From assembly GCA_036759345.1 (NCBI GenBank), contig DAIOUV010000006.1:28438-92437 (forward strand): 64,000 nt of DNA, in the 5' to 3' direction. The notes under the pieces are model-generated. The model searched no databases, was not told the origin of the DNA, and was given only the letters and a program-made list of their open reading frames with translations. Of the stretch, positions 2,348 to 44,787 are shown one piece after another. The position numbers and the translations under genes are program-made. The stretch is from Acidobacteriota bacterium (GTDB taxonomy: Bacteria; Acidobacteriota; Thermoanaerobaculia; UBA5066). Positions within the stretch are counted from its first letter, which is position 1. Every line of letters begins with the position of its first letter.

Positions 2348-3193
2348 TCAAATGAGCGCGCCGAAGCTCACGGTCGCGATTCCGCGGGCGGCGAGGGCCG
2401 CCGCGACCGCGCCCGATTCGAGCGCTTCGGCCTCCCCGCGCCAGTCGTAGCCCCAAAGGTAGCGCGCGCGGGTGACGTCGTCCTCGTCCCCCGAGTGGAG
2501 CGCGACCTCGTAGTCGCCCTCGGGCAGATTCGCGACGGCGTTCGCGAAGCGCGCGGCCGTCATGTGTCCCGCCTCGGCCAGCCCGAGAACGCGGGGAGGC
2601 TCGGGAAGTCCGGCCTCGTGGAGGAGCCTTCGGCCGCGACTGCCGAGAAGCGCGAGGAGGCGCGCGCGAAGCCGGGAAGGAGGCGGCGCATCCGGCCGGG
2701 CGGGCGGGTCGTCGGCGCGGGGGGCACGCACGAAGGGCACGCGGAATCGCCGCGCGAGCGCCACGGCGACGGGGAAAAGAAACGGGTGCAGATGCAGGTT
2801 CTGATGCGAGTCGAGGTGCGTGACCCGTAGGCCGGCGCCCTCTGCCCGCGCGATTTGCGCCTCCCATTCGCGCTCCACCTCGGCGCTCCGAATTCGGCCG
2901 GCCGTCAGAGCCAGGAGAACAGCGGGCCAGTGAGTTCGGAAGGAGGCGCCGGAAAGGAGCGACGGGACGTCGAGGGGCGCGGAGACCGGTCGCTCGCCGC
3001 CCGTGATGCAGAGGTGGACGCCCGTCTCGAAAATCCCCGCCTCGCGCAGGCCGACCGCGGCCTCGTCGAAGGAGGTGCCGTTCGCGAGAAGGCTCACGTC
3101 CGTGAGGAGCCCGTTCGCGCGGAGCGCGGCGACACGGCGCGTGTGCGCGGGAGCGAGGCCGAAGTCGTCGGCGTTGAGGATGACGCGCGTCAA
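2348..3193 (-). CDS. YdjC/ChbG-family carbohydrate deacetylase (HpnK/LgmC-like)
   Basis: LTRVILNADDFGL…THLDSHQNLH motifs. TTG start whose TTGA overlaps the TGA stop of the upstream GT2 gene. The ORF-track N-terminal 205 aa are Arg-rich overlap with the GT2 gene and are excluded. Confidence 0.75.
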   Translation of the reverse strand: MTRVILNADDFGLAPAHTRRVAALRANGLLTDVSLLANGTSFDEAAVGLREAGIFETGVHLCITGGERPVSAPLDVPSLLSGASFRTHWPAVLLALTAGRIRSAEVEREWEAQIARAEGAGLRVTHLDSHQNLHLHPFLFPVAVALARRFRVPFVRAPRADDPPARPDAPPPSRLRARLLALLGSRGRRLLHEAGLPEPPRVLGLAEAGHMTAARFANAVANLPEGDYEVALHSGDEDDVTRARYLWGYDWRGEAEALESGAVAAALAARGIATVSFGALI

Positions 3194-3972
3194 GGCGTTC
3201 CGCGCCGGCGCCGCTCGGCGCGGATCTCCGGCGCGAGGCGCGCCATTTCGCGCAGGATCGTGAGGACCGTCTTCGGCGAGGAGAGGGTCGAAAGACCGCG
3301 CGTCCGCGGAAAGTAGTCGACGCCCAGCTGCTGGATCACGGCGCCGCGGGCGGCGCAGCGCGCGAGGAGCTCGGCGTCGAAGAAGGACCCTTCGCTGCGG
3401 AGCGTCATGCCAGTCAGGAGGCTTCGCCGGATGAGCTTGCAGGAGAAATTGACGTCCCGGAGGACGATTCCGAAGAGGACGTGCACGAGCCCGTTGTATG
3501 CGAACGAGTACAGCGAGCGCAGGACGCCTTCTCCGGTCCGGTCCAGCCGGTAGGCCGAGATGAGATCCGCCCCGGTGATTTCGGCGGCCCGGAACAGGCG
3601 ATCCGTCTCGGCGAGGTCCCAGGGCAGATCGCAGTCGCTGTAGAGAATCCACTCGTGTCGGGCGGCGGCGAAGCCCTCGCGCAGAGTGCCTCCGAGGCCA
3701 CGGTTCGCCGGTTGTGCGAGCACGCGCAGACGTGGCTCTTTTTCGGCGCGCAGCCGCGCGAGCGCCAGGGTCGCGTCCGTGGAGGCGTCGTCCACGAGGA
3801 CGATCTCCCATTCGTCGACATGTTCCTCGAGAGCCGGAATCGCGACGTCGAGGAGCCGGCCGACGCTCTTCTCCTCGTTGAACATCGGCACCACGAGGGA
3901 CACGGAGCGCGCGGGCCGAAGGGCGCCTGCCGGGCGCGAAACGGGTTCGTCTTCGGTCACGGCCCGAAGCAT
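3190..3972 (-). CDS. GT2 polyprenyl-phosphate sugar synthase (GtrB/Dpm1/ArnC-like glycosyltransferase)
   Basis: VSLVVPMFNEEKS…VLVDDASTDAT…YSDCDLP…DVNFSCKLIRRSLL are typical of Dpm1/GtrB-family GT2. 10-nt gap to the upstream GT-C gene. Confidence 0.8.
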   Translation of the reverse strand: MLRAVTEDEPVSRPAGALRPARSVSLVVPMFNEEKSVGRLLDVAIPALEEHVDEWEIVLVDDASTDATLALARLRAEKEPRLRVLAQPANRGLGGTLREGFAAARHEWILYSDCDLPWDLAETDRLFRAAEITGADLISAYRLDRTGEGVLRSLYSFAYNGLVHVLFGIVLRDVNFSCKLIRRSLLTGMTLRSEGSFFDAELLARCAARGAVIQQLGVDYFPRTRGLSTLSSPKTVLTILREMARLAPEIRAERRRRGTP

Positions 3973-3982
3973 ACCCGGCCCT

Positions 3983-5140
3983 TCACGAGACGAAGTGCCA
4001 GTTCACGAAGAAGGCGGCGCGCAGGAGGAGCAGCGCCGTCGATAGCGCGAGGGCCGCGGTGCGGAGACCCGGACGGTGCTCGAGCAGTTCGAAGAGAAGG
4101 ATGATCCCCGGAAAAATCGTGAGGGTATAGCGCGGCACGCCGTTCGTCGTCCCCGTGAGAAACGCCAGGCCGAGAACGCCCGCCGTCCACGCCGCGTCGG
4201 AGAAACGGCGTCTCCTCGCCTGCAGGACGGCGAGAACCGCGAAGAGCGTGAAGTGCGCGAGGGGCGCGAGCGCCCCCGGATGCTGGAGGAGCGTGCCGCT
4301 CGAAAAGAGCGTGACCTGCTCGCGCACGAACGCCGCGCCCCCGGCGAGGGGATTTGTCGAGCGGTGAGCCCAGGCGCCCATCGAGCGGAAGAACAGACCC
4401 GGCTCCCCCTTGCACCATCCGATGCCCAGTACATACGTCAGGACGCCCGCGAGCGGCGCGACCGCGAGGGCAAAGGACGCCGGGAGCCGCTTGCGCGGAT
4501 GCTCGCCGAGCCCCTGTTCGCCAAACCGCTCGCCGAGCCCGTACGCGAGGGCCAGCGCGGGACCCACGGCGACGGCCGGGGCGCGCGTCAGACCGAGCAG
4601 AACGCCGACGCAGACCGCCGCGAGCGGGTGGCCCGTCCGGATGAACCGAAAGGCGAGGAGAAGCAGCAGGAAGAAAAGCGATTCGGTATACGCGGCCGCG
4701 AAGAAGAACGCCACGGGATAGAGGAGAAGGAAGGGGAGCGGCCCCCGCGCGCGCTCCGGTCCGAGACGCGCGCGACACTCCTCGCCGAAGAGAGGAAGCG
4801 CGAAGACGAACGCGGCCCACGCGACGGCCGTCAGGGCCCACAGAGGGGCGAGCCCGGTGAGAAGCGAGAGTCCCCGGGCGAGCATCGGGTAAAGCGGGAA
4901 GAACGCGTGCGCGGACTCCTGCCCCGGCGCCGGAGGCGGGCCGTAACCGTCCCGGGCGATGCTGAAGTACCAGCCCGAGTCGTAGCGGGCGAAATAGGGA
5001 TTCGCCCCCGCGCCCCATGGCGAGGGGCGCGCGAGCGGCAGAACGTGGACAGCGAATGCGGCCCAGAGGTGGATCAGGGCGAGCCACGCGATCGCCAGCG
5101 CCGCGAGGCGGCGGTCCTCGGCGGCTCGAAACGGCCACGG
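3983..5140 (-). CDS. PIG-V/Mannosyl_trans2-like GT-C membrane glycosyltransferase with non-canonical start (first ATG at 4885 is internal)
   Basis: Multi-TM protein. In-frame translation upstream of the ATG at 4885 gives ...LAALAIAWLALIHLWAAFAVHVLPLARPSPWGAGANPYFARYDSGWYFSIARDGYGPPPAPGQESAHAFFPLYPM, the conserved D..WY..IA..GY…AFFPLYP N-terminal motif of the PIG-V family. No ATG/GTG/TTG lies between the in-frame TAG at 5180-5182 and 4885. The 5' boundary is therefore approximate. Confidence 0.55.
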   Translation of the reverse strand, partial: PWPFRAAEDRRLAALAIAWLALIHLWAAFAVHVLPLARPSPWGAGANPYFARYDSGWYFSIARDGYGPPPAPGQESAHAFFPLYPMLARGLSLLTGLAPLWALTAVAWAAFVFALPLFGEECRARLGPERARGPLPFLLLYPVAFFFAAAYTESLFFLLLLLAFRFIRTGHPLAAVCVGVLLGLTRAPAVAVGPALALAYGLGERFGEQGLGEHPRKRLPASFALAVAPLAGVLTYVLGIGWCKGEPGLFFRSMGAWAHRSTNPLAGGAAFVREQVTLFSSGTLLQHPGALAPLAHFTLFAVLAVLQARRRRFSDAAWTAGVLGLAFLTGTTNGVPRYTLTIFPGIILLFELLEHRPGLRTAALALSTALLLLRAAFFVNWHFVS

Positions 5141-5191
5141 ATAAGGCGCAGAGGAAGAGACGGAGCTCGTGGCTGTAGTCTACGGGCGCCC

Positions 5192-5890
5192 ATGGAACGG
5201 CACGCCGAACCGGCAGCGGGAGCCTCCCTGACTCTCGGAAGCGGGGAATCGGCCGCGCTCCGCAAGGCCGCCGCGCCGCTCACGTTGCCGGAGCGAGCCC
5301 ACCTCGATCTGCGGCTTCGGAGCGCGCCGTGGAGGCGCGTCGTCGAGGCCTTCGAGCCGGACGGCCGCCTCGTGGACTTCGGCTGCGGGCCGGGCCTCCT
5401 CGCGCACCTGCTGCTCCGCGCGGGATTCGCGGGAACGTACCTCGGTCTCGATCCCGACTCCCGCAAGGTGGACCGCGCGCGCCGCTGGCTTCCGGAGTCG
5501 CCTGCGCGCCTCTTCCGGGTAGGGACGGTCGACGCCGTGACCCCGGGCGCGTTCTCGCAGGCGGCCCTGATCGACGTGCTCTATCTCGTGCCGCCTCCGG
5601 AGAGATCCGATTTCCTCGCGCGGGCCGTACGGGCTCTGACACCAGGCGGACTCTTCGTCGCGCTCACGAGCGGAGGGGGGCCGCGCTGGAAGAGGCGGCT
5701 GGATACGGCGCAGGAACGGCTTGCCGTCGGCCTCGGCATCACCCGGGGCAGGGGCGTGGCCACGTGCGACGGCGCGGAGGTCGCCCGGCTGCTCGCGGCC
5801 GCCGGTCTCACGGGGGCTGCCGTCGTCGACGTGGGCCGCGGCTTTCTCCACGGTTTCGAGCTCGTTTCGGCGCGCCGCCCGCTCACTTGA
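5192..5890 (+). CDS. class I SAM-dependent methyltransferase
   Basis: ATG at 5192 (MERHAEP…). VDFGCGPGLL glycine-rich SAM motif. 232 aa. The ORF-track upstream extension from 4076 is nonsense. Confidence 0.75.
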   Translation: MERHAEPAAGASLTLGSGESAALRKAAAPLTLPERAHLDLRLRSAPWRRVVEAFEPDGRLVDFGCGPGLLAHLLLRAGFAGTYLGLDPDSRKVDRARRWLPESPARLFRVGTVDAVTPGAFSQAALIDVLYLVPPPERSDFLARAVRALTPGGLFVALTSGGGPRWKRRLDTAQERLAVGLGITRGRGVATCDGAEVARLLAAAGLTGAAVVDVGRGFLHGFELVSARRPLT

Positions 5891-5962: not shown

Positions 5963-8900
5963 ATGCCTTCAAAGGCGCTCCGGCAATGGACGATTCCGCG
6001 CCGCGATCTCGCGGCCGGCGGGTCGGCGCTCGTGCGGCTTTCCCATCCTCTTCTCCCCGCTTTCATCTCGGCGCGCTCGGGCCCGCAAGGCCTCGTCCTC
6101 GGCCTCGAAGGCGCGCGGCCCGCGCCGCTCGGCCGGCTCGACGCTCGTGCCCGTCGGGCGTACCTCGTGAGGCTTGGCTCGCTCGCGGGATTTCTGTCGT
6201 TCCATGGCCTCGGCGTCGCCGCGGAAGACGTCCGGCTTCTCGGCGCCCGGGACGGTGATGCGGACCGGCCGGCGCTGGGCGCGCCCCCGGCCGCCGCGTG
6301 GCGCGCGGTGCCGCCCGCGCTCGCCGTCGCGGCCGCGGCGTTGCGACTCGCCGGGCGGGACGTGCGGGGCGACGACGCGGAAGCGTTGCGCCGTTCGATC
6401 GAGAGCGCCCTCGATCGCGCCCTGCCGCGCGACGTCACGGAGGACGTTCTCTCCGCGCTTCGCTCGGCGGACACGCGCGCGCGCCCCGAGACTCTCGTCA
6501 GTGAGCTCGCGCGGCGGGGAGACGTGGAGCGCACCGTGTCGCACGATCTGCTCGGTCTCGCGCTTCCGGCCGTATCCGTCGCGCGAGGCGACTCGGCCCG
6601 ACCCGCGGTGGCGGTTGGACCCGCCGCGCTCTGGCTCGCCCGCGGAGCCGCGCGCCGGGACGAGCCGCCCGCGTTCCTGGAGTGCGCATCTCTCTCGGCC
6701 CTCGAGGAGGGGGGCGCGCTTCGTCGGCTCGCCCGTGCTCTCGCCGAGGATCCGCGCGCGGCTTTCGTCGAGGCTCTCGCGGACCGAGCGCGGGCTCCGC
6801 GCTCGGTCGACGGACCTCCCGTCGCGCTCGTCGCGATCTCTCTCGAAAGGTGGGACGGGCGTTCGCGCCGCGCGTTCGAGGAAGAGCTTCCCGCCCTCGG
6901 GTTTCGGCTCTTCGCCACGCGGGCCGCGAGTCTCCGTCCCTGGGAGGAGGCGCCGCTCGTCGCCTTCCGGATGAGCCGCGGCGACGCGGCATCGCTTCTC
7001 TGGCTTCCCTTCGCGTCCGTGCACGACGCCGTGGCCGCGTGGCGCGAGGCGGAAGACGCGGCCGGGGCGACGGATGCGGGCCGCTTCCTCGACGTCGTGC
7101 ACGGACTCGCGGCGCGGTTCGATCCCGCCGAGGGGCGCCTCGGCCCCGCGCGGGCGCGGCCGGCGGTGTCGCGCCATGCGGGTCCCGTGCTCGAGGCGGC
7201 CGCGCTCCTCGCCAGCGGTTTCCGGGCCGCGGAAGCCGCCGGGGCCGCGGGCGTCTCCCTCAGGAACGCGGAAGAGGCTCTTCAGGCGGCCGCGGAAGCG
7301 GGACTCCTCGTGCCCGCCCACGCCGACGAATACTCGTTCCGGGACGACGAAGAGCGCGGGAGGATCGCCGCGCGCGTGCCCGCCTCGGCGCGCCGCGACG
7401 CGGTCGCCCGCCTCGAAGACGCGAATGTTTCGGGCATCACGACATCTCGATTTGCCATCGCGTCACTCGCGCGCGCGAGTGCAGGCGACCTCGCGGCGGC
7501 CCGCCTCGCCCTCGACGCGGCCGTGGCGAACGGAGACTCATCCGCGGCCGCGGAACTCCTCTCGCGCGCCCCTCGGACGGAGCCCGATCTCGGGCGGCCG
7601 CTTCTCGCGGTGCGCGTCCTGCAGGGGGCGGGCCGCCCGGAAGGCGCGCGCGCCGTGGCGGGGCGGATCACCGCCGACATGATCTCCAGCATCCCACTCG
7701 ACGAGCGGCTCGCGACGGCCCGCGCGCTCGTGCGCCTGCGCGAGGAAAGTCGCGCTCTCGCGCTCTGCCCGGGAGGCGCGCCCGAGGAGGACGTCGCGCG
7801 CGCCTGGGTTCTCGTCGAATCCAGACGTGACGCCGAGGCCCGGCGCGTGCTCGAGCGTGCTGCGGCGCGCCTCGCGGGGGCGCCCGTCGCGTTCCGCCTC
7901 CGGGTGAAGCTGCTCGGCGCGGAGCTTCACGAACGCGCGCACGACTACGACGCCGCGGGCGCCGCTCTCGCCGAGGCGGAGGCGCTGCTGCCCGGCGTCG
8001 AGGACGATGGGCTCGCGCGGGAGATGGCGCGCACCGCGGGCTATCTCGCGAACGACCTCGGCCGCACCGACGAGGCGATCGTGCTCTTCCGGCGTGCCGA
8101 GGCGCTCTCCCGCAGCGCGCTGGAGCGCGCGGACTCGACCTACGACGTGGCGTACGCGGCGCTCGACGGCGGCCGGTTCGAGGTCGCGGCCCGGGAGCTC
8201 GAGTCCGCCCTGGCTCTTTATGCCGCGAGCGGGCACGAAGAGCGGTACCTCTCGGCACTCGGGAACCGCATCGACCTCTTCCTTCGGATCGGCGACTTCC
8301 CGGCCGCCCGCAGCGTCCTCGAGCGGGTTCTCGCGCATGAGCGCGCGGGAGGGCGGGACCATCAGGTTCTGTTCGCGATCCCGAGCCTTCAGGAGCTCTC
8401 GCTTCTCGACGGAGACGAGGGCGCGGCGGCGGCGGCGTTCCGCGAGGCCGAGACGCGCGGGGCGTCGAGCCCCCGTCACCCGTCCTGGCGGGAGATTCTG
8501 CTCTTCGAGGCGGAGCGCCTCCTCGCGGCGCCGGACCCGGAGGGGGCTCTCGTCCTTCTCGCCCGGGCTGGGCACCTCCCGGACAACAGCTCCCGCACGG
8601 AGGCGCGCCGGCTGCGGCTCGTGGCCTCTGCCTCGCGCGACGCAGGCCGACCCTCCCGTGAGCGGTCGGGGGCCTTCGCTGCGGACGAGCGTGTTCTTCT
8701 CGACGCCGAGACCGCTCTCGCCTCCGGACGCGCGGTGCCGGATGCCGCGAACGCGGCTCTCGAACGCCTCGCGGCGTCCGGCACGGGCGCCGGAACCGCG
8801 GTCCGGCGCGTTCTCGAGTGGTCCGGCCGCTTTCCGGCATTCTTCGCGACGTCGGTGGCCGGCCCGCTCCTGAGGCTCGCGCGTCGCGTCGCGGCGCGGG

Positions 8901-9910
8901 CGGGCCTTTCGCGCGCCGAGGAGCGCTTCTCGCGGCTGCTCGAGCACGGCGCGCCGCCCGAACCTCCGGGGGTACCGATCGCGGCGCCTCCCACCGTTGT
9001 CGCCGAGGATTTCGCCACGCGCGATCTGTTCGCGAAGGCGGCCCGCGTCGCTCGGTCGACGATCTCGGTACTTCTCCTTGGGGAGAGCGGCACTGGGAAG
9101 GAGATCGTGGCGCGTGAGCTCCACCGCCTCTCGGGCCGGCGGGGACCCTTCCTGGCCGTGAACGTCGCGGCGCTTCCGGGCACGCTCGCGGAGGCGGAGC
9201 TGTTCGGCCACGCGCGCGGCGCCTTCACGGGCGCCGACCGGGACCGGCGGGGTCTCGTCGAGGAGTCGTCCGGTGGAACGCTTTTCCTCGACGAGATCGG
9301 CGACCTGCCGCTCGCCCTCCAGGGCAAGTTCCTGCGCGTCCTCCAGGAAGGCGAGGTCAGGCGGCTGGGTGAGACCGCCGTCCGGCGCGTCGACCTCCGC
9401 GTACTGGCAGCGACTCACCGCCCCCTCAAGGAGATGGCCGAGGCGGGTTCGTTCCGGATCGATTTGTACTTCCGCCTGGCCGGGCTCGAGCTCGAGCTGG
9501 CTCCTCTCCGGAAGCGTCCAAGGGATCTCGCGCGGCTCATCGAGGTGGCTCTCACAGGACGCGCGACGCTGGCGCGTGAGGCGGCGGCCGCCCTCAGGGC
9601 ATGGCCGTGGCCGGGAAACGTGCGCGAGCTCCTCGCCGCTCTCGAGGCCGCCGTGGCGCTCGCGGCGCCCGGACACGTCATCGGCCTCGAGCAGCTTCCA
9701 CGCGCCCTGCGCGAGAGGAGCACGGCGCCGGCCGGCGCGGGGTCCTATCAGGACGCGCTCCGGGCGGCGCGTCTCACGGCCATCGACGGGGCGCTCCAGG
9801 CGGCCGGGGGAAACCGGACTCGCGCGGCCCGCGCGCTCGGAATCTCGCGCCAGTCGCTGCTGTACGAAATGAAGAAGCTGGAGATCGATGCGCCGCGCGG
9901 TGGACGCTAG
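5963..9910 (+). CDS. sigma-54-dependent transcriptional activator (bacterial enhancer-binding protein) with ~1000-aa Ala/Leu-rich helical (TPR-like) N-terminal region
   Basis: C-terminal AAA+ sigma-54 interaction module ([23 protein letters not shown]) and Fis-type HTH ([22 protein letters not shown]). GGGAGGA SD 8 nt before the ATG. No receiver domain seen. N-terminal extent is less certain. Confidence 0.65.
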
Positions 9911-9919
9911 ACTCCGCGC

Positions 9920-11965
9920 GTGTCTTCGCGCCGCCGGCTTGGTCTCGCGCTCCTCGCGCTGCTCCCGTTCCTGAACGGGCTTCCATACGATTTCACATAC
10001 GACGACAAGCTGATCATCCGCGACAACGAGCGCATCGCAGCGCCGGCGAAGGTGGAGGAAATCTTCACGACGCAGTACTTCGGCGGGGCGCTCACCTCGG
10101 CGCAGAATTACCGGCCGATCCTCCTCCTGACCTATGCCGTGCAGCACTGGATCCACGGAAACCGGCCGTGGCTTTTCCGGGCGGTGAACCTCGCACTGCA
10201 CGCGGCGGTGACCGTGTCGCTCGGCGAGTGGCTCTTCGCGCTCGGCTTCGCCGCCGGTCCCGCCTCGGCGGTGGCCGCGCTGTTCGCGGTCGCGACTATC
10301 CACGTCGAGGCCGTGACGTCCCTCGTCGGCCGCGCCGAGCTCCTCGCCTCCTTGCTCGTCTTCGTCGTGGCGCGCCTCTGGCTGCGCGCGACGCGCGAAG
10401 GCCGCATCGCGCCAAGGCCCTATGGGGCCGCGCTCGGCCTCTTCCTTCTCGCGGTGTTCGTCAAGGAGAACGCGATCGTGGCGCCGGGCGTCGTCGTCCT
10501 CGGCGAGCTGTTCCGCGGCGGACGCGGCCGATCGCCGCGGGCGGCGTGGAGCGGCCTTTCCAAAGCGGCGCGCTGGGCTCTCGCGGGATTCGCCTTTCCG
10601 ATCGCTGTCCTCTTCGCCGTGCGTCTCATCGTCATCAAGGGGTTCCTCATTTCGAAGGAAGCGGGAGTCTTCGAGCTCGAGAACCCTCTCGTCGTGCTTG
10701 CGTTTCCCCTGCGGGCCGCGAATGCCCTCGGCCTCGGCCTGCGCTATGTCTCGAAGACGTTCCTGCCGATTCACCTCTCGGCCGACCACTCTGCCTACGC
10801 CTTGCCGCTCGCACGCTCTCTGCGCGACCCCGTCGCCTGGTGGGGAGTGGCCGGGGCGATGGCAGGCGTCATCCTCACCCTCGCGCTCTGGCGGAGACGA
10901 CCCCTCGCCGCCCTGGGCCTCTGCCTCTTCGCCGGCGCGCTCTTTCCCGCCTCGAATGTCCCGTTCATCATCGGCACGATCTTCGCCGAGCGTCTCGCCT
11001 ACCTGCCGTCCGCCGGGCTTTTTTGTCTCGCGGTGGGTCTCCTCGCCCCTCCGTCCCGGGAGGTCCCGAGGCCCGCACGGCCCTGGCGCGAATGGCTCCT
11101 CCTCGCCGTCGTCGCCCTGTACGGCGCGGCGACGATCGCGCGCAACCGGGTCTGGAAGGACGACCGGACGCTCTATGCCGACATGGTCGCGAAGGTCCCG
11201 AACTCGGCGAAGGCCCACTACAACGTGGCCTGGGACGCGCAGCGCGAGGGCCGTGGCGCCGAGGCCGCCCCGCATTTGCGCGCGGCCGTCGCGATCTTCC
11301 CGGGCTACTACGACGGCTGGGCGCTCCTCGGAAAGCTGCTCTGGGACGAGAAGAAATGGGACGAGGCGATCGCGTGCTACCGAAAGTCGGTCGAGATCTT
11401 TCCGTCGTACGAGAACGGACGATGGGGTCTCGCTAAGACGCTGGAAGAGTCGGGAAGGATCGAGGAGGCCCGAAAGGCCTTTGAAGACGGTGCGGATCAA
11501 TTACCCGATTCGTATCCGATCGCGTATCACCGGGCCGCGTTCCTCGAGGTTCACGGCACGCTGGAGCAGGCCGAGGATGCCTGGAGCGATGCCGTCGAGA
11601 ACGGCGACGGAGCCGGCTCCGCGCGCCTCGCGCACGCCCGCGTTCTGAGAAAGCTCGAGCGGGAGGAGGAAGCGTGGGACGAGGCGCGGTTCGCCCTCGT
11701 GAACGATCCCGCGAACGGCGCGGCGCGCCGCTTTCTCGCGGAGGGATACGAGCGCGCCGGCCGGACGCTCGCCGGAGGCGCGGAGTGGACGCGCGCCGTG
11801 CGCGGAAATCCGGACGACGAGACGCTCGCCTCCGAGCTTCTCGAGTACGCGGTGCGACACCCCGAGACGCGCTTTCGGGCGCGGCTCCTCGTGCCGGGAA
11901 TCCGCCGGAGCTTTTCAAAGCCCGGCGATCGCCTCGCGAAGGCGCTCGCGGCGCTCGGCGCCTAG
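9920..11965 (+). CDS. TMTC/PMT-like GT-C membrane protein with C-terminal TPR repeats (putative protein O-glycosyl/mannosyltransferase, DUF1736-like)
   Basis: ~420-aa polytopic N-terminal domain followed by TPR-like repeats (AHYNVAW…, GWALLGKLLWDEKKWDEAIACYRKSVEIFPSY…). Starts 10 nt after the EBP stop. Confidence 0.75.
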   Translation: MSSRRRLGLALLALLPFLNGLPYDFTYDDKLIIRDNERIAAPAKVEEIFTTQYFGGALTSAQNYRPILLLTYAVQHWIHGNRPWLFRAVNLALHAAVTVSLGEWLFALGFAAGPASAVAALFAVATIHVEAVTSLVGRAELLASLLVFVVARLWLRATREGRIAPRPYGAALGLFLLAVFVKENAIVAPGVVVLGELFRGGRGRSPRAAWSGLSKAARWALAGFAFPIAVLFAVRLIVIKGFLISKEAGVFELENPLVVLAFPLRAANALGLGLRYVSKTFLPIHLSADHSAYALPLARSLRDPVAWWGVAGAMAGVILTLALWRRRPLAALGLCLFAGALFPASNVPFIIGTIFAERLAYLPSAGLFCLAVGLLAPPSREVPRPARPWREWLLLAVVALYGAATIARNRVWKDDRTLYADMVAKVPNSAKAHYNVAWDAQREGRGAEAAPHLRAAVAIFPGYYDGWALLGKLLWDEKKWDEAIACYRKSVEIFPSYENGRWGLAKTLEESGRIEEARKAFEDGADQLPDSYPIAYHRAAFLEVHGTLEQAEDAWSDAVENGDGAGSARLAHARVLRKLEREEEAWDEARFALVNDPANGAARRFLAEGYERAGRTLAGGAEWTRAVRGNPDDETLASELLEYAVRHPETRFRARLLVPGIRRSFSKPGDRLAKALAALGA

Positions 11966-25978: not shown

Positions 25979-26940
25979 GCCGCCCCCTCCACGGTGGATG
26001 CGTCGTTCACGCGGAACAGGGACTCGAGCCGGGCCTCGACGGGAGCGGCCTCGACGAGCTGGACGCCACCCGCGACGAGCGCGGAGACGAGCCGGGCCGC
26101 CGCGTCGTCGGATGCAACCCTGACGCGCGCCGTCGTCGCGCTCTCTTCGAGGATTTCGGCACCGCAGGAGGCCGCCGCTTCGGCGAGTTGGCGCGTGAGG
26201 GGCGCCTCGCCGTCCGCAAGCCACCTCAGGGCGAGCGTTCGGGGAGAGTCCGCGCCCGACACCGGAACGTCCTCGAGGCAACCTTCGCGCAGGAAGAGGA
26301 CGCGATCCGATACGCGCTCGACCTGGTCGAGTTGGTGCGAGTTGAAAAGAACCGTGACCCCGTCTGCTTTCAGGTCGGCGAGCAGGCGGCGAACGAGGAG
26401 CACGCCATTCGGATCGACCCCGGACGTGGGCTCGTCGAGGAATAGAAGTCGCGGCTTCCCGACGAGCGCCTGCGAGAGCGCGAGGCGCTGGAGCATTCCC
26501 CGGGAGTAGGTCGCGACGCGCCGACGACGCGCCGAGGGCTCGAGCTCCACGCGATCGAACGTCTCGGCGACATCGGACCGCCGCGTCGCGGGGGGGCGGC
26601 CGGCGAGGGCGTGGTGGTAGGCCACGAAGGCCTGGCCGGTCATCCAGCGGTCGAAGGAAAGGCGCTCGGGGACGTATCCGATGAGACGATTCACACCGGG
26701 CGTTCCGGGCGCGCCGCCGAGGATCCGGATCCGGCCCGCGTCCGGGAAAAGGAGCCCGAGCAGGCAGCCGAGAAGCGTGGTTTTCCCGGCTCCGTTCGGG
26801 CCTACGAGGCCGAGGACGATGCCGGGCTCCACCTCGAAGGACACGTCCCGTAGAGCCGGAACGGGTTTGTCTCTATAGCGCTTCGTGAGCCCGGAAACGA
26901 CGATTGCGGGAGCGCTTACCGAATCGGTGTATCGCAACAC
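25975..26940 (-). CDS. ABC transporter ATP-binding protein
   Basis: GPNGAGKTT, YSRGMLQRL, LLFLDEPTSG motifs. Confidence 0.85.
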   Translation of the reverse strand: MLRYTDSVSAPAIVVSGLTKRYRDKPVPALRDVSFEVEPGIVLGLVGPNGAGKTTLLGCLLGLLFPDAGRIRILGGAPGTPGVNRLIGYVPERLSFDRWMTGQAFVAYHHALAGRPPATRRSDVAETFDRVELEPSARRRRVATYSRGMLQRLALSQALVGKPRLLFLDEPTSGVDPNGVLLVRRLLADLKADGVTVLFNSHQLDQVERVSDRVLFLREGCLEDVPVSGADSPRTLALRWLADGEAPLTRQLAEAAASCGAEILEESATTARVRVASDDAAARLVSALVAGGVQLVEAAPVEARLESLFRVNDASTVEGAA

Positions 26941-44198: not shown

Positions 44199-44787
44199 GG
44201 ACGGCGTACGGTCCTTTCGAGGCGGGATATTGCGTGACGGACGAGACGTCGCCTCCGGCAGCCTTCCAGATCCAGGCGAGGAGGCGGGTCGAGAGGGTGA
44301 CGGCCGCGTCGTAGCGCTCGCGCGCGGTGGTCGCGGGAAGCGGCGCCGCGGCCAGTATTTCGGGCGCCACGAACGGTTCCGCGGGGTACCCGAGGAATCG
44401 GGCGGTCTTGGGGACGTCCCCGGCCGCGCCGGCCGGCGGCGGCAGCGCGAGGGCAAACTCGTGGACGATTCCGCCCGTCTGATAGACGACTTCCTCGAAG
44501 GCCGTGTGCTTGCGGATGGCCTCGGCGAGAGAGCGCGCGCCGCGGGCCGCGGCTGCGCGATGGGCGGCCGCGTCGTGCGTGCCGGTTTCGGCGGCCACCG
44601 CGTCGCTCACACCCTGCATGAGCCGGCGACTGTGTCGCGCGAGCTGACGCTTGAAGTCCGGCGGCGCCCAGGAGGCCGCCTCGGCCGCCATCCGGGCCTC
44701 GTCGGGGACGCTCCAGCGCACGGGCTCCGCGCCCCGCGCGGCGGGCGCGATGAGAGCAAGTGCAAGGGCGGTGGCGAGGCGTCTCAT
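44191..44787 (-). CDS. secreted hypothetical protein (signal peptide)
   Basis: MRRLATALALALIAPAARGAEP signal peptide. 8-nt overlap with the purH start. No family recognised. Confidence 0.4.
   Translation of the reverse strand: MRRLATALALALIAPAARGAEPVRWSVPDEARMAAEAASWAPPDFKRQLARHSRRLMQGVSDAVAAETGTHDAAAHRAAAARGARSLAEAIRKHTAFEEVVYQTGGIVHEFALALPPPAGAAGDVPKTARFLGYPAEPFVAPEILAAAPLPATTARERYDAAVTLSTRLLAWIWKAAGGDVSSVTQYPASKGPYAVRE

Follow-up and report, generated by a model that had tools for sequence, protein, structure and literature searches.

A possible ACG start codon on a leaderless mRNA for a GT-C glycosyltransferase gene in a clade of Thermoanaerobaculia

This study concerns a gene for a GT-C membrane glycosyltransferase on the minus strand of a 64,000-nucleotide (nt) stretch of DNA from an Acidobacteriota bacterium (GenBank assembly GCA_036759345.1, contig DAIOUV010000006.1, positions 28,438 to 92,437). 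The whole stretch is called the window here, and positions are counted from its first letter. The gene has no canonical start codon ahead of its conserved N-terminal part, and this absence is a conserved feature of the clade to which the organism belongs and not an artefact. The reading favored here, to which we give an even chance, is that the gene would be transcribed from a symmetric bidirectional promoter into a leaderless mRNA on which an ACG would serve as initiation codon, yielding a GT-C enzyme of 395 residues.

Results

The open reading frame (ORF) runs on the minus strand from an in-frame TAG at 5182-5180 to a TGA at 3985-3983. Direct reading of that strand found no ATG, GTG or TTG among the 98 codons from 5179 to 4886. 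The earliest canonical start is the ATG at 4885-4883, right behind the residues AFFPLYP, and public gene calls open there (P0009, 300 aa). The translation upstream of this ATG, TTATSSVSSSAPYPWPFRAAEDRRLAALAIAWLALIHLWAAFAVHVLPLARPSPWGAGANPYFARYDSGWYFSIARDGYGPPPAPGQESAHAFFPLYP, is protein-like and includes DSGWY..IARDGY. Codons are numbered from the ACT at 5179 (codon 1), which makes the ACG codon 4 and the ATG at 4885 codon 99. A first-pass annotation made from the letters of the window had described the lack of ATG, GTG or TTG between the TAG at 5180-5182 and 4885, a first ATG in the AFFPLYP motif and a protein-like upstream translation with a D..WY..IA..GY motif, and each of these was found again. 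It had also correctly placed CTG codons at 5098-5096, 5077-5075 and 5041-5039, an ATC at 5092-5090 and the ATG of a divergent methyltransferase (Pfam Methyltransf_23/25/11) at 5192; the motif that it spelled RFPWPYP reads APYPWPFR in its true order. The elements around which the argument turns are the following.

3983..5170, minus strand: proposed full GT-C glycosyltransferase coding sequence (CDS), 395 codons plus TGA.
5168..5170, minus strand: ACG, proposed non-canonical initiation codon; transcription is predicted to start at its A (5170), the 7th nt past the promoter hexamer.
4883..4885, minus strand: first canonical ATG, an internal Met (codon 99) that is kept in >90% of homologues and is not the start.

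Relatives were obtained by scanning one genome per species together with JGI metagenomes, which gave 63 loci. Of these, 34 including the window (31 distinct) make up the close clade, which consists of Thermoanaerobaculia/Acidobacteriota metagenome-assembled genomes (MAGs) with 65-99% protein identity; L030 and L066 are one JGI contig. Among the 63 loci, the only close-clade canonical starts ahead of [FY]PWPF were a GTG at codon 7 in L033 and a GTG at codon 11 in L024. Four loci (L068-L071) were added because their proteins were called from upstream starts, and they too have GTG at codon 7 or 11; a GTG at one of these two linker codons is found in five lineages (L033, L071, L024, L068 and L069/70). 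The 38 close-clade loci other than the window all share the arrangement, and 33 of them lack a canonical start ahead of FPWPF. The comparison of orthologue starts that the first-pass annotation had proposed thus places the start-less state across the clade.

The same state was seen in replicate assemblies. A protein look-up found the 300-aa product P0009 on eight contigs, four of which were fetched (NCBI MAG GCA_036770195.1, ENA ERZ27294346, JGI 3300025548 and Logan SRR35200083). None of these near-identical assemblies has a canonical start ahead of the ATG at 4885, and a comparison of positions 5230 to 4883 (348 nt) with the window showed 3-4 substitutions only, none of which makes a start. 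The metagenome scan added a further start-less and near-identical JGI contig, L031. Peat, permafrost and soil are the kinds of site from which contigs with this gene, such as DAIPJQ010000001.1 and Ga0208716_1001789, came.

Public annotation of the clade reflects the problem. Of 54 protein clusters, 50 (P0003-P0050 and others) are called from scattered internal codons between 26 and 107, sixteen of them at Met99, and are N-terminally shortened by 25-106 residues. This scatter probably arises because gene callers take only ATG, GTG or TTG and the true start is non-canonical. In the sister clade (~50-56% identity) the called starts of 55 of 65 proteins correspond to codons 3-10, and the DNA has an ordinary GAGG Shine-Dalgarno (SD) sequence 8-9 nt ahead of ATG, GTG or TTG. 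As a separate observation, the GT-C gene of L022 (CAVVDA010000001.1, 3001-4178) aligns in three reading frames that change near residues 215-228 and near residue 367, and is either a pseudogene or affected by assembly indel errors.

The part upstream of the ATG at 4885 is under purifying selection. Pairwise nonsynonymous to synonymous rate ratios (dN/dS, Nei-Gojobori) among 27 distinct full-length close-clade genes came to 0.23 over codons 13-98, against 0.22 over codons 99-398. For the window and L012, neither of which has a canonical start, dN was 0.185 and dS 0.886. Two segments near the N-terminus differ strongly in constraint, given here also as the ratio of the corresponding proportions of differences (pN/pS).

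5144..5167, minus strand: variable Ser/Pro/Ala/Glu-rich linker (codons 5-12), pN/pS 0.91 and dN/dS 0.89, with the frame kept.
5102..5143, minus strand: YPWPFRAAEDRRLA (codons 13-26), a conserved motif at the cytoplasmic N-terminus, under the strongest constraint of all segments (pN/pS 0.22).

Across the close clade, all four Pro codons occur at both Pro14 and Pro16 of the motif and five Arg codons at Arg18, and the amino acid never changes; the distant clade keeps the motif as well, as FPWPWRGPENRR. The linker changes length in a single case, a 3-nt deletion in L012, and in the close clade this freely evolving segment is not enriched in canonical start codons. This pattern of substitution indicates that the upstream part is translated. 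Because codons 13-26 are the most constrained and their Pro and Arg variation is purely synonymous, initiation must lie upstream of codon 13.

The protein read from the proposed ACG start is a multi-pass membrane protein of the GT-C fold, for which AlphaFold2 gave a model with a mean pLDDT of 89.7 and a pTM of 0.91. Two of its elements lie ahead of Met99.

5045..5122, minus strand: transmembrane helix 1 (TM1), residues 17-42 of the ACG-started protein, AlphaFold2 helix H17-42.
4886..5044, minus strand: first extracytoplasmic loop, which holds the HAFFPLYP motif and, within DSGWY, the invariant Asp (GAC 4981-4979).

In an alignment of 57 homologues (A2), 12 of the 48 family-invariant residues precede Met99 (P58, A61, D64, W67, Y68, Y76, H88, F90, F91, P92, Y94 and P95). 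The acidic residue of the first loop after TM1, D64 in DSGWY, is invariant in all 57, and its catalytic role is putative. M99 is nearly invariant in a second alignment (A1), including in homologues that start ~90 residues further upstream. Met99 is internal in the full-length homologues. Neither TM1 nor the loop with the conserved acidic residue would be part of a product begun at the ATG at 4885.

PF04188 (PIG-V, Mannosyl_trans2) matches the window protein with 14.8 bits (E = 0.018), which is under the gathering threshold of 22.4 bits, and the match spans residues 62-178 and so begins upstream of Met99. The same family is matched at E <= 0.1 by 37 of the 57 homologues, the best at 1.3e-5. The window protein is regarded as a remote relative and is not counted as a member of the family. 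A general domain scan of the gene gave no Pfam PIG-V match at E <= 0.01, NCBIfam gave a single non-significant match of 12 bits, and the protein had no sequence-level match to any solved structure.

The region ahead of the ACG contains a conserved hexamer.

5177..5182, minus strand: TAGACT, predicted -10 hexamer of the GT-C gene; the in-frame TAG makes up its first half.

TAGACT is invariant in all 30 distinct close-clade sequences and in the four loci added later. It forms part of a block, cc(c/t)g-TAGACT-AC(A/C)-G-N-N-ACG, that is also invariant in 30/30 distinct sequences (L012 set aside), and the bases just before and just after the ACG vary freely. At the same site the distant clade, which is the sister clade, has TAGAGT, TAGGGT, TAGGTT or TAGGCT. 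TANNNT is shared by both clades, and the common denominator would therefore be the core of a -10 promoter hexamer.

This interpretation agrees with what is seen elsewhere in the window, where occurrences of TANNNT peak 6-9 nt ahead of the start codons that come first in their ORFs. Examples are ccgTACAATccccgg-ATG (47808, minus strand), ccgTAAAATccctcc-GTG (28250, minus), gcTAGACTccgcgc-GTG (9920, plus) and ccgTACAATctcagga-ATG (52302, plus). The GT-C gene reads ccgTAGACTacagcc-ACG. Its context, ccgTAGACT-acagcc-ACG, matches contexts such as ccgTACAAT-6-ATG, ccgTAAAAT-6-GTG and gcTAGACT-6-GTG, with the commonest spacing (6 nt) and with ACG in the slot of the ATG or GTG. About 10 other genes of the window share the hexamer geometry with ATG or GTG, and most of them have neither an SD sequence nor a clear -35. 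A TANNNT ~12 bp before the start is a published signature of leaderless genes (PMC3160421). The GT-C gene resembles such genes in having TANNNT ~6-9 nt ahead of its proposed start and no SD sequence. The TAG is necessarily in frame because the gap to the start is 6 nt, and hence it looked like a delimiting stop; the TAG of the hexamer is likewise in frame at 9920, 28250 and 33843. Judged from this geometry, the in-frame TAG is a predicted promoter element and not a gene boundary.

In the window as a whole, TANNNT, often after CCG, lies 4-9 nt ahead of ATG or GTG without an SD sequence at 9908-9922 (plus strand), 28250 (minus), 33843 (minus), 47808 (minus) and 52302 (plus). Further genes of this type, all on the minus strand, are at 44787, 21918, 20911, 26940, 29127 and 39577, and a clear TTGAC(A/G) -35 is present only at 26940 and 39577. 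This suggests that the organism uses leaderless mRNAs widely. At 9908-9913 (plus), the TAG stop codon of a gene for a sigma-54-type activator (5963-9910) doubles as the opening half of a TAGACT that lies 6 nt ahead of the GTG of the next gene (9920), and an internal leaderless-type promoter appears to overlap the stop codon of the activator gene near 9910.

The triplet in the start slot is almost as invariant as the hexamer. ACG is present in 30/30 distinct close-clade sequences and in L068-L071, and among the 37 clade relatives examined the lone exception is L012, which has ATC. Both ACG and ATC are one mismatch away from ATG, and two substitutions separate them from each other. ACG is the only near-cognate codon common to the clade upstream of codon 13. 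An invariant ACG is not expected for a plain Thr codon, because only 2 of the 45 invariant columns with four-fold-degenerate codons in the GT-C gene are without synonymous variation. The locus therefore has a near-cognate codon conserved at the start slot across orthologues, a conserved CDS downstream of it and no canonical alternative. Folding of the 60 nt at the 5' end of the predicted mRNA does not exceed that of shuffled sequences (z = +1.0), and no GGAGG-like sequence precedes the ACG. SD-led initiation was considered and rejected; GAGGAC at codons 21-22 reads GAGAAC in most relatives.

The hexamer would also serve, in reverse, the gene on the other side.

5176..5181, plus strand: TAGTCT, predicted -10 of the methyltransferase gene, 10 nt ahead of the ATG at 5192.
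5192..5890, plus strand: S-adenosylmethionine-dependent methyltransferase, the other arm of the promoter; Pfam Methyltransf_23 (3.6e-11) and others.

The methyltransferase is divergent to the GT-C gene in all close-clade loci. TAGACTA is a 7-bp palindrome, so the hexamers of both strands overlap (5176-5182 reads TAGACTA on the minus and TAGTCTA on the plus strand). In the sister clade, TACTCT or TACCCT stands 7 nt ahead of the GTG or ATG of the methyltransferase, and the palindrome core is TAGAGTA or similar. The bidirectional promoter reported as the most common in bacteria has overlapping -10 elements in which bases 2 and 6 pair, with transcription starts 18 bp apart (bioRxiv 10.1101/2020.01.31.928960). 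In the window, positions 2 and 6 of the hexamers pair (TA-NNN-TA), and the predicted divergent starts, 5170 (minus) and 5188 (plus), are 18 bp apart. By these features TAGACTA fits a symmetric bidirectional promoter.

A second irregular start was seen on the methyltransferase side. In L043 and L046 (Ga0208080_1000463 and Ga0066793_10014151, independent contigs of one lineage) the position orthologous to 5192-5194 is AGG, in place of the ATG or GTG of every other close-clade locus. No in-frame canonical start lies upstream in L043/L046, and the next is a TTG at codon 40. Their AGG is a second near-cognate codon with a mismatch in the middle base at a start of the same bidirectional promoter.

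Other observations concern the surroundings of the gene. The minus strand from 5170 to 2348 carries the GT-C gene, then a GT2 glycosyltransferase gene (3190-3972) and then a YdjC-family gene (~2348-3193), and this order is conserved in relatives. Together these genes look like a small module of lipid-linked sugar donor, GT-C transferase and deacetylase. A search for a special tRNA nearby found no tRNA genes within the 64-kb window. A search of 4700-5500 for structured RNA or known RNA families gave a sub-threshold match to the Rfam family CRISPR-DR20 and nothing else; this match, at 5092-5125 on the plus strand within the GT-C CDS, had 19.8 bits (gathering score 42) with E = 0.26 and was judged to be due to chance.

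Discussion

The model proposed here is that RNA polymerase would start at A5170, 6 nt past the -10 hexamer TAGACT, and that the ribosome would initiate at or beside the 5' end of the mRNA on the near-cognate ACG. The initiator tRNA would presumably be used at this codon, at low efficiency. The product would be the intact 395-residue membrane glycosyltransferase, in which 95 residues precede the first ATG, and through TAGACTA the GT-C and methyltransferase genes would share their promoter. From the sequence and its conservation we infer the transcription start, the use of ACG as initiation codon and a low level of expression. In Escherichia coli, initiation at ACG is measurable at ~0.1-1% of the AUG level even with a strong SD sequence, and the product has an N-terminal Met (bioRxiv 10.1101/063800). 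A very low initiation rate may be enough, or may even be selected, for a membrane glycosyltransferase. More broadly, and with confidence a little short of even, we suggest that the whole Thermoanaerobaculia clade initiates the GT-C protein on the 5'-terminal ACG of a leaderless mRNA, that this has been kept through ~30% protein divergence, and that it perhaps keeps expression of the enzyme far below that of the partner co-transcribed from the bidirectional promoter.

Several observations weigh against this model. In Deinococcus deserti, the 916 mapped leaderless mRNAs begin only with ATG (740) or GTG (176) (PMC4007540), and in a Caulobacter leaderless reporter near-cognate codons cut expression drastically (PMC8459731). 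Where it has been measured, leaderless initiation is thus more selective for AUG/GUG than leadered, SD-led initiation. The GT-C gene lacks the 5'-terminal AUG or GUG of known leaderless genes: the slot holds ACG, or ATC in L012, and no ATG, GTG or TTG follows for 95 more codons. The window and ~300 kb of related loci yielded no second leaderless start of ACG type or on another near-cognate codon, and because of this an ACG start would be specific to this gene and not a general habit of the organism. A strict consensus scan for sigma-70 promoters found no -35/-10 pair at the GT-C start, although a -35 is also missing from most of the window's other leaderless-type starts. The conservation of the ACG is itself open to other causes. 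ACG is the preferred Thr codon of the gene (65% of Thr codons), which makes its invariance only moderately improbable (~4%), and it has not been lost from the lineages with a linker GTG. The ACG may thus not owe its conservation solely to a role as start codon, and the methyltransferase promoter of the opposite strand could account for part of the conserved block.

These points lead to the strongest alternative, which we regard as unlikely but worth serious consideration. Non-canonical initiation would take place upstream of FPWPF but not at the ACG, on another triplet of the linker (codons 5-12) or wherever the 5' end of the mRNA lies, and the ACG would be kept as part of the promoter and transcription-start region. 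Translation is needed from codon 13 onward, and the ACG persists where a GTG was gained at linker codon 7 or 11. The A of the ACG is the predicted +1 and also falls at -18 of the opposite promoter, a position that favors T on the strand of that promoter. However, these promoter rules account for the A and leave the invariant C and G of the ACG unexplained. Codons 5-12 contain no other near-cognate common to the clade, and the sole exception to ACG, the ATC of L012, is two changes away and again one mismatch from ATG.

Less probable is a leadered mRNA whose promoter would lie further upstream, within the methyltransferase gene and in antisense orientation to it, with SD-independent initiation at the ACG or another codon, for example aided by the pyrimidine-rich linker downstream. 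TAGACT would then act for the methyltransferase only, as TAGTCT, which would agree with the lack of a -35 for the minus-strand hexamer and with the good position of the reverse hexamer for the methyltransferase in both clades. On the other hand, there is no SD-like sequence upstream of the ACG. The gap between hexamer and ACG is invariantly 6 nt, as it most often is at the window's canonical leaderless-type starts, and in the distant clade the forward TANNNT precedes an ordinary leader with SD and ATG.

The remaining explanations are much weaker, and three of them had been raised in the first-pass annotation, whose interpretation stands as far as rare-codon initiation in general is concerned and fails in its particular candidates, in sequencing error and in an inactivated gene. 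Its candidates were the CTG at 5098-5096, the ATC at 5092-5090 and the CTGs at 5077-5075 and 5041-5039, and a protein begun at any of these would be without the N-terminal motif and would lose TM1 in part or entirely. In some relatives an ATG or GTG stands at codons 26-28, and a protein started there could retain ~20 residues of TM1. Nevertheless, use of these codons is very improbable: they are not conserved (codon 28 is CTG in 13, CTC in 12 and CTT in 2; codon 30 is ATC, GTC, CTC, GCC or ATT), they have no SD sequence ahead of them, and they lie downstream of the most constrained segment. We give as little credence to the 300-aa protein from the ATG at 4885 as the true product, with the upstream part as an inactivated remnant. 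This ATG is the sole canonical start and was chosen by all gene callers. However, purifying selection upstream of it equals that on the rest of the gene, TM1, the loop with the invariant Asp and the beginning of the PF04188 match all lie upstream, full-length homologues carry Met99 internally, and neither an SD sequence nor a -10 precedes the ATG.

Recoding is more improbable again. Either the TAG at 5182-5180 would be read through from an in-frame GTG at 5203-5201, or the ACG would become AUG by C-to-U editing. A GTG 7 codons before the TAG is present in the window and in many relatives, and ACG starts edited to AUG occur in plastids and plant mitochondria. However, the upstream GTG is the antisense of a His codon of the methyltransferase and is absent in L004, L008, L010, L011 and L012; within ten codons of the TAG it is also absent in L007, L024, L040 and L053. 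Read-through from the GTG at 5203 was rejected on the grounds that the upstream start is not conserved and the frame varies. We know of no C-to-U editing of start codons in bacterial mRNA, and the ATC of L012 could not be edited to AUG. An out-of-frame GTG in CCG-TGG followed by a frameshift was also rejected, as Phe/Tyr13 and Pro14, upstream of this GTG, are conserved with synonymous change and L012 has CCC-TGG. Finally, loss of a start through a sequencing or assembly error, such as GTG to GTC at 5161-5159 (codon 7, where L033 and L071 do carry GTG), is the least credible of all and is refuted by five independent assemblies of the same population that have GTC there, with no start-creating difference, and by the CCC, GAC, TCC or GAG of other subclades.

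If the ACG is the start, the GT-C gene would be a natural and evolutionarily stable case of bacterial leaderless initiation on a codon outside the set of translation table 11. It would contradict the picture, drawn from Caulobacter reporters and Deinococcus start maps, that leaderless initiation needs AUG or GUG. The locus would also be a simple test system, with one promoter and two divergent leaderless or near-leaderless genes, one with ATG and one with ACG. For annotation, the shortened gene calls in 50 of the 54 clusters strip TM1 and the conserved Asp and can mislead both annotation and structure prediction for the family.

Comparison with known systems

In fold class, the protein belongs with the GT-C enzymes ALG12, Pmt4, AglB/STT3, GPI mannosyltransferase I, ArnT, AftA/AftB and PimE, although it has no sequence-level match to any solved structure. 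The leaderless genes of high-GC bacteria (Deinococcus, Actinobacteria, Caulobacter) have, like the GT-C gene, a TANNNT shortly before the start and no SD sequence, and their mRNAs begin at the start codon itself. However, their starts are almost only AUG or GUG, whereas here the slot holds an ACG that is kept across the clade. Symmetric bidirectional promoters (Warman et al., bioRxiv 10.1101/2020.01.31.928960) have the same TA-NNN-TA core and lead into mRNAs on both arms. In the present case, where the starts are predicted, both arms would differ from those promoters in giving mRNAs that are leaderless or nearly so, with coding sequences just 21 bp apart.

Among non-canonical starts, the AUU of infC is a conserved non-canonical start codon in bacteria. 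In D. deserti, rare CTG and ATC starts were confirmed by proteomics (PMC4007540). Like the proposed ACG, these are near-cognate starts, and they are kept across related genomes and probably set low or regulated translation. They differ in being leadered and preceded by an SD sequence, and their codons (AUU, AUC and CUG) belong to the table-11 set, whereas the ACG lies outside it and has no SD sequence. The leaderless mRNAs of mammalian mitochondria with non-AUG starts (PMC11775629, PMC8459731) share both the lack of a leader and the near-cognate start. Their codons are AUA, AUU, AUC and GUG, which a tRNA-Met with a special modification decodes under a different genetic code, and nothing comparable is known for Acidobacteriota. 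The combination described in this study thus joins elements of known kinds, namely leaderless genes, non-canonical starts and bidirectional promoters.

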